A DNA stretch of 64,000 bases from Octopus vulgaris. Taxonomy: Eukaryota. The stretch is from the NCBI GenBank assembly GCA_951406725.2, contig OX597821.1, forward strand, positions 14,880,001-14,944,000, read 5' to 3'. The position numbers and the translations under genes were made by a program. Each line of letters starts with the position of its first letter. The stretch's first letter is position 1. Under the pieces are notes generated by a model. That model was given only the letters and a program-made list of their open reading frames with translations, did no database searches and had not been told where the DNA came from. This document shows, in pieces, positions 15,740-50,931 of the stretch.

Positions 15740-16324
15740 CGAAAGAAGGTTTGAAAATGCAATTTAAAAGATGTTTATTTACTTAACCGGTTTCACTCTT
15801 TGGAAAAAGATTGTCAAAAGTAACATAGAATATTATGAATTCAAAAAAGTTTTTTACATAATTGCCACATTGAATATTATGAATTCAAAAAAGTTTTTTT
15901 TACATAATTGCCACATTACATGTATATATATAGTCTTTGGTAACAGGGACATGCTAAGGGCATAAAGAAGTTCAACAGTGTGATGAGAATATCTAAAAAA
16001 AAGGGGCAGAAAAGAATAAAACAAATATATTATTGGAAGTTTTGGTTGCGTTAATTGCCCCTTTTTTTCAAATATTCTCATCACACTGTTGAACTTCTTT
16101 ATGCCCTTAACATGTCCCTGTTACCAAAGACTATATATATACATGTAATGTGGCAATTATGTAAAAAAAACTTTTTTGAATTCATAATATTCAATGTTGC
16201 AATTATGTAAAAAACTTTTTTGAATTCATAATATTCAATGTTACTTTTGACAATCTTTTTCCAAAGAGTGAAACCGGTTAAGTAAATAAACATCTTTTAA
16301 ATTGCATTTTCAAACCTTCTTTCG
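15740..16324. repeat. Near-perfect inverted repeat, ~269 bp arms and ~47 nt spacer, between (TA)n tracts
   Basis: 15740-16008 is the reverse complement of 16056-16324; the ORF track shows identical 64-aa ORFs on opposite strands. Confidence 0.97.
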
Positions 16325-16358
16325 TTATATATATATATATATATATATATATATATAT

Positions 16359-16528
16359 AACGGGAAGTTTTATGAAAATAAACAAAAGACGAAGGCAGGT
16401 GAAGTACAAACAAACAATTGTATTAGTACGGCGCTCAGGAATATAAATAAAACAAGTCTTTTACGTTTCGAGCCTACTCTCTTCAACAGAAAGATACACA
16501 GAAAAGAAACAAGGAGAGAAAAATGCGG
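16359..16528 (-). mobile_element. TA-flanked short element with hammerhead-like motif (family of 27629-27830)
   Basis: Reverse strand reads CTTT-CTGTTGAA-GAGagtaggCTC-GAAACGTA-AAAG; downstream sequence matches 27740-27829. Confidence 0.8.
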
Positions 16529-16568
16529 ATATATATATATATATATATATATATATATATATATATAT

Positions 16569-16837
16569 CCCTCTTTAAATTCAGGGAAAATGCAACCTAT
16601 AACCAGCGCATTAGCAGAATCATATTTTATCACAAAGTATAATCCGCTTTTGAATGCGTCCACCACAAATGACACTTCTACAAGGGCCTTAGAGTAATAC
16701 CCATGCAAATAACTATTCCACAATTTAATTATTTTTCATTCTTTGAAAAGTTGAAAATGTCGCAAAGTCTGAAACCGGTACTAAAATGTTCTTGATGATT
16801 AAATTATTATAGCATTTTCTACCTTGTCTTATTTTCC
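16569..16837 (+). mobile_element. 3' end of a Penelope-like element
   Basis: Translation ...SALAESYFITKYNPLLNA fits a GIY-YIG C-terminus (ExxxIxxxxPxLN); followed by 'ttgaaaat...gaaaccggta'; (TA)n on both sides. Confidence 0.6.
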
Positions 16838-16897
16838 TTATACATATATATATATATATATATATATATATATATATATATATATATATATATATAT

Positions 16898-17330
16898 AGA
16901 ATGGTTGTATACTGTCAATCTAACAAGAACGTGACAGTAGGGGGTACACCACCGCTGTATAGCCCTAGGAAGCATCGAACGCCTCCTGATAGCTTTGACA
17001 CATTTTTTCCCTGTGTCCTTATATACATATACGAAGGGGAGACAAACACACCCGGCCGCCGGAACTGCATCTAGGGACACCGTGTTTCAGGATCATTGTC
17101 CCTCATCGGCCTAGAGTAGCAGACACCGGTCAGCTGGTGATATTTGCCTCGACTTCGTAATTGTATATATGTAAACTCAGTGAAGTCTATTCACTGATTA
17201 TCAAAATAAGAAATATTGAATTTCTAAATCTCTCGTAGAGACATGTACGGTGGTGGGGTGATAGAATGGTTGTGTACTGTCAATCTAACAAGAACGTGAC
17301 AGTAGGGGGTACACCACCGCTATATAGCCC
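16898..17330 (-). mobile_element. Element with ~68 bp direct terminal repeats (16898-16966, 17263-17331) enclosing a hammerhead
   Basis: 'agaatggttgt.tactgtcaatctaacaagaacgtgacagtagggggtacaccaccgct.tatagccct' occurs twice, 365 bp apart. Confidence 0.85.
17070..17115 (-). ncRNA. Type-I hammerhead ribozyme motif with GUC site
   Basis: Minus strand: TCTAGG-CCGATGA-GGGAcaatgaTCCT-GAAA-CACGGTG-TC-CCTAGA; 6-bp stem I and a U4C core variant. Confidence 0.8.
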
Positions 17331-47400: not shown

Positions 47401-47822
47401 TCTTCTCACAGAAAATTATATTATACAAATTTTAAAGAAATTATCAGAAACCGTATTTTCAGATTACATTTCAAATTAAAAAGCAATTTTGTCTTTTTGT
47501 TTTATATAGAGAAAAAATAAACATTTCCATTATGAAGTATGGCTTCTTGAATTCAAATAGTATAAGTATTACCGTTCTTTTATTAAGAAAAGTGTAGATA
47601 AGATCCATCTGTATATACACTCACGGAACTTATAGCACGATTATATCAGTTTCTCCTTATATAAAAACTTAATAATGTGCGATGTGGTATAAAAGTTAAA
47701 ACATATGTATGAATCACAAAACACTACCCACCAACGTGTGTGTGTTTATATATATATATATATATATATATATACCCACCAACGTGTGTGTATATATATA
47801 TATATATATATATATATATATA

Positions 47823-48215
47823 TATATTACATAAATATAAGTGGGATGACCACTAAGTGGACATCCATTATGCTAGAAGTAGATCCGCTATAGTCTTACC
47901 ACTAAGAAGAGATTGTTCTCAAGAATATTTAGCAAACGCCAGAACGTAAGCGAGCAAGACAAATAAAAATATATATTTTGTATCTTTTCATTTGCCTTGC
48001 TCGCTTACGTTCTGGCGTTTGCTAAACTTTCTTGAGAACAATCCTTTCTTAGTGGTAAGACCATAGGGGATCTACTTCTAGCATAATGGATGTCCACTAA
48101 GTGGTCATCCCTCTTATATGTATGTAATATAATTTTTCTGAATCTTCAGACTTTTCAATATGCTAGAGCACTGGTTATAAATTGATATTATTCAATTTTC
48201 ACCCTTATTTTAAAT
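47823..48215 (+). mobile_element. TA-flanked element with a ~145 bp-arm palindrome (47823-48131) and a unique 3' extension
   Basis: 47823-47968 is the reverse complement of ~47984-48131 with scattered mismatches. Confidence 0.9.
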
Positions 48216-48480
48216 ATATATATATAATTATTAATAGTAGGGAATATAAAATTCCAAGGCAACAGCGGAAAATAAACACAATTTAGTAATTCTAAATCAA
48301 ATTTCACGATATATAATATATATATAGAATTAAGAGACAGAACCTTCATAAAGTAATGCAATTAATAATGAAAGATATTATCTATAAAATATACATTTAA
48401 ATATGTTATTTATATTGTACTGTAAATTACTATACTAAATAACACTAAATTTTAACTGATTTTTTAAACTTGGTATTAGA

Positions 48481-48858
48481 AACGCAATCTTTCAGGATGA
48501 AAATGCACTTATTCACACAGTTAAAATTGTTACCGAATGGCACGAAGAACATTCTAGTGAAGTTGGACATCTTATTTAGCCACCACAATCCCCAGATCTC
48601 AATATTATTAAACATTTATGGTGCATTTTAGAAAAACAAGTAAGGAGTCGATATCCTCCACCATCATCACTATAAGAACTGGAGACTGTTTTAGCTGAAG
48701 AATAGACAAAAATTTCTTTGGAAATAATTCAAACTTTGTACGAGTTAATACTTCGTAGAATTCAAGTTGTAATTACGACCAAAGGCGGTCCTACCCCATA
48801 TTAAAATAAATTTGTTTGAAATTTGAAGGTGTTTGCATGATATAGTCCAACCCCTGTA
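48481..48858 (+). pseudogene. Tc1-like transposase C-terminal fragment with right TIR
   Basis: Translation NAIFQDENALIHT...*PPQSPDLNIIKHLW...RRIQVVITTKGGPTPY* with in-frame stops; ends '...caacccctg|TA'. Confidence 0.92.
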
Positions 48859-50590
48859 CATATGCATATATATATGTGGTTTGGTTTTTAATCTTGATTT
48901 GCCAATATATATATATATATATATATATATATATATATATATATATACAGTGGGCTTCTTTCAGTTTCTGTTTACCAAATCCACTCAGAAGGCTTTGGTC
49001 GGCTCGGGTCTGTACTAGACGACACTTGCCCAAGTTGTCACGCAAAGAGGATCGAAGCTGGAAACATATGGCTGGGAAAAAAACTTCTACAAGTTTATAT
49101 TAAAGTTATGTAGATCGTAACTCAGAGTGGACTATGAAATCCTACGTGGAGCACTAAGCATAACAGTAACCGTACACACAATTTCTGCTCTCCCTCTCTC
49201 TTTCTATGTATGTGTGTGCGTGTATGTATATATATATATATATATATACATACATATATATATATATATATATATATATATATATATATATATATATATA
49301 TATATATATATATACATATACGGACACAGACTGTGTGTCGTTAGCCAGCTGGAAAAGATGCTCCCCTGGGGCTAAAACAACAATAACATCGTCCTTTACA
49401 GGACTGCCAAGTTATGTTGGCATCTAAACATTAGTATCTATCTATCTATCTATCTATCTATCTATCTATCTATCTATCTATCTATGTATCCATATATATA
49501 TATATATATATATATATATATATATATATATATGTATGTACGTATACACATGCATCCACACATATATATGCGTGTTTCTCTATGTATGTCTGCGTATCCG
49601 GTTACCTGCATGCATGCTCGTATGCGTATTCATAAAGACATTAGTGTATAAGAAGGTTCGCTGTTATAAAACTCTGACAGAAGCGATCTAATTGCGCCGT
49701 GTTAGTGAAGTGACATAAATTCAAAAGAAATGTCAAGACATGAAACGTTAATTCTTATCTACTTTGTACTGAAATAAAAATTATTTGAGATGATTCAATG
49801 ATCAGTACTTTATTGGAAGTTCGATGTATTAGTCATTATCTTCTCATCTACGGAACTGCTATATTTTAAGTCACAAACATTTAAAATTAATGTTATAGGA
49901 TCCAAGCGATTTATCTTTACATGGTCGCTTGAGTTGCCAGAAATAACAGTCAACTCCCTTAGATCATACTACAAGCTGGTAATTTTACACAACCTCAATT
50001 AGGATATGTAGAGCCACAGATTTAGCTTGAATATGGGACCGGATGGCTGCACTTACAGTGATTTTCGTCATAGGCATTCATTCGTATCTCGGACTAGATA
50101 ACAAGTGTAACATTAAAGCGAGCAACAGCAACTTATATTTTTGAAATATATTAGCTATTATCTATATGGTTATTTAATATAAGCTTATAGAGACTGCAAC
50201 AACATATGTTAGAATTAAGAAATAATAAACGACAGCTAATCAGCAGAATATAACCAGTAGTCATGTATATGAAAACCTATTTAATAGGAATATGAACCAG
50301 CTAAAATATATTTGCGTCTGCTATATTATTTGATCAGGAATATTAGAGACGTGGTGCCTGTTAAGATCTTTCTGAAGTATGAAAGGACTAATTGAGAAGT
50401 ATACTAAATCACATATTTGTCAGTGTGATATAAGAGAAAACTGACAGGTTAACTTTTGTCTTTGTCGCAATCACGATAAATTAGACAGTAACACACACAC
50501 ACACACACACACACACACACACACACACACACACACACACACACACACACGTATATATATATATATATATATATATATATATATATATAC

Positions 50591-50931
50591 ATATTCAACA
50601 ATATGAGGAATGGCCAAATAGGACATTCGACTCACTAGAAAGAGCAGCCAAAACTCATACCGCTAAGTAGTTGTAATTCTGAAATAGAAAGAGAAATAAA
50701 AACGTTTACCCCTTTCAATATATATATATTACAGAGATGTACTCGCATAGCAAGTAATTTGATCTGAGATCGTGTGCTGAAACGAAAACAATTGCAGCGT
50801 GGAAGGTGTTTATAAGCCATTTAAGAAACACACAAAAGCCGTTCGATTCACTCCAACATTTAAGTTTAATTTGTCAAAATATTTTCGTCGCTAAAATCCG
50901 CGACCTGTTCACTGACAAAGTCCGTTGCATC
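50591..50931 (-). mobile_element. TA-flanked element with an atypical hammerhead-like fold (50870-50919) and a TTCTAG-hairpin end
   Basis: Minus strand: TTTGTCA-GTGAACAG-GTCGC-ggatttta-GCGAC-GAAA-ATAT-TT-TGACAAA; later 'gctctttctagtgagtc-GAATGtCC-tattt-GGcCATTC'. Confidence 0.7.

Follow-up and report, generated by a model that had tools for sequence, protein, structure and literature searches.

The 64,000-nucleotide stretch of Octopus vulgaris contig OX597821.1 analysed here (positions 14,880,001 to 14,944,000; hereafter the window) contains three families of hammerhead motifs with non-textbook cores. At a probability of roughly 70%, we read all three as minimal type-I hammerheads, and the short repeats that carry them as likely end fragments of Penelope-like elements (PLEs); the first two (F1 and F2) likely cut slowly, and the third (F3) is likely weakened. 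In the cores of F1 and F2 both letters of the C3:G8 tertiary pair are exchanged in a compensatory manner, and U4, G5, A6, A9 and GAAA are kept. The features are real and mostly accounted for by known hammerhead covariation, and none of the three families is a new kind of system. What is new is a matter of degree: G3:C8 is found as a natural family in high copy number, and A6U likewise marks a family, the activity of both being a prediction only. Standard hammerhead numbering is used throughout, with F1 at 50870 (minus strand), F2 at 16241 (plus) and 15779 (minus), and F3 at 27703 (plus), 16457 (minus) and 54599 (plus).

The window is AT-rich animal DNA, rich in (TA)n, (CA)n and (TAGA)n runs and in interspersed repeats. 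Hammerhead motifs with non-textbook cores had been pointed out in an earlier note on this DNA, and a pattern scan of the window recovered all of them at the places cited. As a chance control we used 40 local dinucleotide shuffles of the window. A scan for the architecture that is blind to the core yields 39 matches against a shuffle mean of 25 (maximum 37), and because of this 'stems plus GAAA' alone is weak evidence for a hammerhead. Matches that also have U4, G5, A9 and a complementary 3:8 pair, a criterion picked after the motifs were seen, number 6 in the window against a shuffle mean of 0.2 (maximum 2). By score, 50870 and 16241/15779 take the top two places of the core-blind scan. No hammerhead family is found among the Rfam matches listed (150 of 269 at E<=10), which are only of the microsatellite-driven miRNA type. 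Repeat copies in the window were sought by self-BLAST and nhmmer: there is no second F1 copy, F2 occurs only as its two arms, and F3 has three copies and one sister copy.

The three families share a clear pattern of change. U4, G5 and A9 are retained in all of them and the literal CUGANGA core in none (GUGAACA in F1, UUGACAA in F2, CUGUNGA in F3). Positions 3 and 8 are altered only jointly and stay Watson-Crick, as G:C in F1, U:A in F2 and C:G in F3. G5 is unchanged in every motif, and A6 is altered only in F3. The earlier note had listed near-invariant positions as changed; this applies to C3 and G8 (jointly) and to A6 in F3, and not to G5. Its term 'rewritten' does not fit F1 and F2, where the changes are 3:8 swaps, U3:A8 having been published in PLEs and G3:C8 being an active laboratory rescue. 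G12-A13-A14-A15.1, the palindromic 15.2-16.2 and U16.1-H17 are present in F1, F2 and two of the three F3 copies. F1 and F3 have an extra base 9a and G10.1-C11.1; F2 is without 9a and its stem II opens with U.U. Stems I and II stand in type-I order, by pattern and folding for F1 and by pattern only for F2, 27703 and 16457, and 54599 fails. In no motif does stem III form an intramolecular helix; there is a palindrome of 4-6 nt that requires a partner copy. Stems I-III and GAAA had been described as intact, which does not hold for 54599 (G12, palindrome and stem II) or for stem III within one molecule, and holds partly for 16457, where one stem II pair is lost.

The F1 hammerhead spans 50870-50919 on the minus strand and was identified by pattern scan, folding and the family consensus in four runs. 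Stem I is a perfect 7 bp (50919-50913 with 50876-50870) and stem II a perfect 5 bp with G10.1-C11.1 (50904-50900 with 50891-50887), just as noted before. The core GUGAACA consists of G3 (50912), U4, G5, A6, A7, C8 (50907) and A9, with the extra G9a at 50905. GAAA (G12-A15.1) occupies 50886-50883, followed by the palindrome AUAU, U16.1 (50878) and U17 (50877), and the sequence predicts a cut between 50877 and 50876. Loose ends and joints of contigs place the repeat body, with approximate boundaries, at 50791-50934 (minus). It begins about 16 nt upstream of stem I, beside an AT/TA run, and many copies stop about 75-85 nt beyond the predicted cut. Since the loose ends become AT-rich and heterogeneous at both limits (more than about 16 nt upstream of stem I, and around 50791), this suggests a unit of about 140 bp. 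The 5' boundary (50919-50934 and contigs) is apparently common to F1 copies and may be the start of the copied RNA.

To obtain an F1 consensus, contigs of four of the 24 sequencing runs listed (four organism labels) were aligned to 50790-50934 at 80% likeness. F1 is a high-copy family: 7531, 4147, 5957 and 2418 contigs aligned in the four runs, and the summed depth divided by the single-contig depth points to copies of the order of 10^4, though this ratio should not be taken as a copy number. Eleven variants are present at 3% or more; the core (50905-50912), stem I on its 5' side and 50877-50885 are free of them. The sole stem I variant at this level (50874, 4-13%) turns a U-A pair into U.G. 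The variants at 50886, 50887 and 50889 are of the CpG type and do not exceed 6.4% (3.6% for that of G12), and the remaining ones lie downstream. In each run 46-57 contigs depart at 50892 into another 9-nt loop II and then return to the stem II and G3:C8 core of the others (agreement 0.73-0.82), which makes G3:C8 the consensus of at least two F1 subfamilies. The core changes had been proposed to be family traits, and the consensus is indeed non-canonical both for F1, with G3:C8 in thousands of contigs, and for F3, with A6U in all three copies.

The joints between F1 contigs tell something about the arrangement of the copies. Opposite-strand joints connect 50832 to 50919 in three runs, and go-back joints connect 50919 to 50800 (runs X3 and X4), 50919 to 50862 (X4) and 50920 to 50793/50796 (X2). 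We read the latter as head-to-tail units of about 59-140 nt, the kind of joint not being stated in the source table. F1 has inverted copies and probably head-to-tail copies. An F1 17-mer occurs at 120 or more loci in genome contigs and at 4 in viral contigs, which is close to the about 69 that chance would give; 2 of the 124 listed loci pass a loose stem II filter, and neither resembles a hammerhead.

F2 is a minimal hammerhead found by pattern scan at 16241-16285 (plus). Its stem I has 6 bp (16241-16246 with 16280-16285), and its core UUGACAA runs from U3 (16247) through U4, G5, A6 and C7 to A8 (16252) and A9. Further on are the stem II segment (16254-16269), GAAA (16270-16273), the palindrome CCGG, U16.1 and U17 (16279). 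Stem II starts with U.U or, alternatively, with a 2-nt 3' overhang. The claim that UUGACAA is identical in both arms of a palindrome was confirmed: the same hammerhead lies at 15779-15823 (minus), and the two motifs stand in inverted arms of one insertion. This insertion (15698-16325) is located between (TA)n runs and consists of two arms of 270 nt (15739-16008 and 16056-16325; 98% complementary, 47-nt spacer) and a one-sided extension of 36-41 nt (15698-15738) that resembles a PLE 'tail'. Counting the arms as independent observations was rejected, as they belong to one insertion. The element ends 46 nt (about 87 with the tail) beyond the predicted cut, and in a read-through transcript the arms would pair as a single long hairpin in which the motif is buried. 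In genome contigs the F2 motif has 0 matches. A TA-flanked fragment at 16570-16841 (plus) holds a possible second U3:A8 motif, UUGAAAA, with GAAA at 16771, a CCGG palindrome, a U...U-closed stem II and a stem I of only 2 bp; it is probably a decayed F2-type relative.

The best F3 copy (27703-27738, plus) has the core CUGUAGA, that is C3 (27707), U4, G5, U6, A7, G8 and A9, with A9a, a 4-bp stem II with a tetraloop, GAAA at 27727-27730, the palindrome CG, U16.1 and A17. Its element is positioned between (TA)n runs at 27629-27829. The copy at 16457-16494 (minus; CUGUUGA, with U6, U7 and A9a) has one broken stem II pair and is likewise found between (TA)n runs, at about 16360-16529, so that TA runs flank two of the three copies. 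The third copy (54595-54630, plus; CUGUCGA, with U6, C7 and A9a) has one stem II mismatch and is a decayed one, judging by the loss of G12 (to C, 54619) and of the palindrome (CG to CT). F3 ends 95 nt beyond the predicted cut. A6U is present in all three copies while position 7 varies, and is the sole uncompensated core change among the families. Given U6 in three of three copies, F3 classifies as a non-consensus variant rather than a full member of the minimal PLE type-I hammerheads, and its cleavage is likely weakened and predicted to be much slower.

A sister of F3 at 43206-43240 (plus) has the same GAGC/GCTC stem II arms, A9a, GAAA-CG-U and a homologous 3' region (nhmmer E 4.5e-6 with the F3 profile), and carries A6. 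Because this relative shares the stem II arms and the 3' region, U6 in F3 is probably derived; the sister is represented by one copy only, itself decayed (U4C, weak stem I). An alternative F3 register with A6 (U3..G8, 3 nt later) was rejected, as stem II of 27703 would be broken and 3 nt would separate stem I from the core. Searches with the F3 motif yield 0 matches in viral contigs, 2 in genome contigs (the one inspected without hammerhead core) and 1 in metagenome contigs, also without hammerhead core.

The likely PLE origin of F1-F3 is deduced from anatomy. (TA)n runs flank F2 and two of the three F3 copies, F2 has its inverted copy and one-sided tail, and F1 has opposite-strand and go-back joints. 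PLEs are reported to leave inverted truncated copies with a one-sided 30-40-bp tail at (TA)n targets (PMC8557442). With the palindromic stem III, the (TA)n sites, an inverted duplication with a tail of about 40 nt, and tandem or inverted joints, the repeats match PLE end fragments. The GIY-YIG remnant with its canonical motif in the window, described below, also counts in favour of this origin.

Several observations weigh against this reading. No PLE reading frame is physically linked to F1, F2 or F3 in the window; a link to an endonuclease frame is seen there only for a canonical motif at 2026. U3:A8 in F2 rests on one insertion in the window. Only about 5 subfamily-level differences occur over 145 nt of F1, so the sparing of its core is suggestive of selection and no proof. 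Also, the four runs have no depth step at the predicted F1 cut, which means that F1 copies are mostly not made from RNA cut there, and G3 of F1 is able to pair with U17, extending stem I. Minimal PLE hammerheads are moreover reported to cleave poorly even with canonical cores, and even as dimers (PMC4209133).

Folding gives a mixed picture. The minimum free energy structure of the F1 monomer includes stems I and II (z -3.4 against shuffles), F1 being the sole motif of the five tested that beats its shuffles. The other four have z values of 0.36, -0.64, -0.06 and 1.25, which leaves F2 and F3 no better than shuffled sequence. The hammerhead dimer is the lowest-energy dimer for none of the five motifs evaluated, with -27.2 against -31.3 kcal/mol for F1, -10.7 or -12.5 against -20.7 for F2 and -10.9 against -20.6 for F3. 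Since the same is true of the canonical hammerhead at 6137, these modelled energies do not discriminate, and activity is neither supported nor excluded by them.

The strongest competitor, which we hold to be a good deal less probable, is that all three motifs are non-catalytic: the fold would persist because the PLE protein uses it as a signal for binding or folding, or because it marks where the copied RNA begins, and the role of the 3:8 pair would be structural only. Such a scenario fits the spread of the A6U family and the missing depth step in F1. It also fits published work on the PAc element, a Poseidon PLE, in which insertion in vitro has no need for cutting and no RNA reads end at the hammerhead cut site (Frangieh et al., PMC11167929), and on Naiad PLEs, which proliferate without canonical hammerheads (PMC8557442). 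Pointing the other way, the 3:8 pair is part of the catalytically competent fold (Roberts et al., PMC9901934), and G12, GAAA and NUH are retained in F1, F2 and two F3 copies. In the PAc hammerhead C3G or G8C abolishes cleavage, and the double change, the same swap as in F1, partly restores it (PMC11167929). The related suggestion that catalysis was lost and the fold kept, made in the earlier note, accordingly has little support for F1 and F2, because their cores are compensatory swaps with a natural (U3:A8) or active laboratory (G3:C8) precedent; it is plausible for the A6U family only.

We consider it improbable that all three families are fully competent, with position 6 of the A6U family rescued from outside the core, by metal preference, a shifted register or an element protein. 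A natural A6C hammerhead from Bcep176 is slow with Mg2+ and better with Mn2+ (Naghdi et al., PMC7151607; slow A6C also in Perreault et al. 2011, PMC3088659), cutting by the PAc hammerhead requires the PLE protein, which switches it on (PMC11167929), and F3 retains U6 though position 7 varies. However, within the CUGA turn the G:C swap is reported as the sole rescue, other single and double mutants being low in activity (PMC9901934), the sister family has A6, and U6 may be common to three copies by descent, for which selection is not needed. Very improbable, finally, is that the motifs resemble hammerheads only by chance, or are canonical ones after random decay: the core-blind architecture is common, decayed copies exist (54599, 17500, 20090, 62060) and F2 is one insertion, but core-like matches far exceed those in shuffles, paired changes fall at exactly positions 3 and 8 in two families, U6 is in every F3 copy, and the consensus of thousands of contigs with two loop variants refutes it for F1.

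Returning to our preferred reading of slowly cutting PLE end fragments, the following course of events may be envisaged. An autonomous PLE would provide the reverse transcriptase and the endonuclease and nick (TA)n sites. Copying would begin 45-95 nt downstream of the motif and leave mainly single or inverted copies, which would be unable to build a dimer stem III; the F2 motif would in addition be buried in its long hairpin. For two palindromes to join as stem III, and for a cut after position 17 to follow, the copies would have to stand head to tail; F1 and F2 would likely cut slowly, as dimers or aided by the element's protein. The 3:8 complementarity in three states would reflect long-term selection on active-site geometry in the source elements. 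Cutting would probably be dispensable in single copying rounds, which could allow half-swapped intermediates and the A6U family to spread.

A bolder extension, which we put forward tentatively and regard as possible rather than likely, is that one genome harbours amplified C3:G8, U3:A8 and G3:C8 families next to a broken A6U family. G3:C8 would then have crossed a valley of dead single mutants, and A6U would cut only when rescued by a retroelement protein or Mn2+, or never. If true, this set would amount to a natural experiment on the purpose of the Penelope hammerhead. With G3:C8 in a natural high-copy family, evolution would confirm the 3:8 tertiary pair in a third state. The A6U family and its A6 sister could be compared as a matched pair to learn if PLE mobility depends on self-cleavage, a point left open by the published in vitro work. 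Rfam models and standard descriptors miss these motifs, and hammerhead counts in PLE-rich genomes are therefore too low.

Canonical-core motifs are present in the window as well. One with the core CUGAAGA (2026-2070, minus) lies about 380 nt downstream of the remnant of a C-terminal PLE GIY-YIG endonuclease with an upstream CX4CxxC (2448-3095, minus; PF01541, E 8.4e-5, 23.2 bits against a cut-off of 22.6). Together they belong to a 5'-truncated, frameshifted PLE at 1960-3400 (minus) that is Neptune/Nematis-like by the description in PMC8557442. The stem II of this motif opens with U.U, as in F2, and a second, decayed copy is found at 62022-62120 (plus). Another canonical-core family of minimal hammerheads has a 6-nt palindrome and three copies (6137-6179, 17489-17586 and 20052-20137, all plus), two of them decayed. 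An inverted duplication at 62333-63086, laid out as the F2 insertion, holds a canonical-core motif with a partly deleted stem II (62867-62904) in one arm and a decayed motif in the other. The hammerhead-like architecture at 49718-49753 (plus; core CAAAAGA followed by A) may have arisen by chance or by decay of a canonical motif.

Ten further long palindromes or inverted duplications (8938-9097, 21779-22624, 24315-24479, 42700-42809, 44125-44384, 47823-48131, 54761-54949, 55239-55664, 63230-63680 and 63900-63990) were scanned and yielded no core-like hammerhead. A repeat at 50990-51362, also found at 22627-23049 and 52838-53213, combines a (CA/GACA)n tract with a terminal GC-rich hairpin before a TA run; we take it to resemble non-autonomous Helitron-type elements. 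The regions 56257-57234 and 57721-58146 (both minus) hold a LINE-type reverse transcriptase remnant (PF00078, E 2.6e-24) with a probable endonuclease fragment upstream.

Our literature search turned up neither a natural G3:C8 nor a natural A6U family, nor any such family in octopus or other cephalopods, some key hammerhead surveys being beyond its reach. Lunse et al. are said to have collected about 150,000 PLE hammerhead variants in 2017, which may include G3:C8 or U6 families. The available text of PMC6155905, PMC10085705, PMC11014351, PMC6765202 and PMC8495972 contains no report of either.

The closest known system is the minimal hammerhead of metazoan PLEs, defined with base 9a and a palindromic helix III (Cervera and De la Pena 2014, PMC4209133). 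The likeness extends to the type-I order, the short stem I, the palindrome for stem III, the NUH site, 9a and G10.1-C11.1 in F1 and F3, the dispersed single or inverted copies and the U3:A8 core, of which a family of about 1,300 motifs is described in S. mansoni PLEs; F2 differs by its U.U-opened stem II. Among the 56 representatives in Fig. S3 of that paper U3:A8 occurs twice, U3.G8 once, and G3:C8 and U6 do not occur, the search descriptor being biased toward the canonical core. Natural core variants likewise include U3:A8, a tolerated U10.1.U11.1 and a pyrimidine at position 6 (PMC3088659, PMC7151607). The published A6C is a single phage motif, whereas A6U is common to a multi-copy animal repeat family here. 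Non-LTR retrozymes, with a proposed origin in PLE pLTRs, are tandem hammerhead units from PLE ends and resemble our repeats as short non-coding units that go from monomer to multimer (PMC7229834; bioRxiv 10.64898/2026.07.22.740005). They differ in that the copies in the window are single or inverted, not tandem, and the searched text of the preprint does not mention variant cores.

The ends of F1-F3 resemble those left by PAc, where copying begins 111-118 nt into the reading frame and the cut is at +26, so that copying starts about 85-92 nt past the cut and leaves a tail (PMC11167929). The G3-C8 variant is reported to perform worse with C17 (PMC3884650); F1 has U17, and no variant is listed there. 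In its core, F1 is identical to the engineered C3G/G8C hammerheads, in which cleavage is partly rescued (PMC11167929, PMC9901934). Those are laboratory mutants, whereas F1 is natural and highly amplified.

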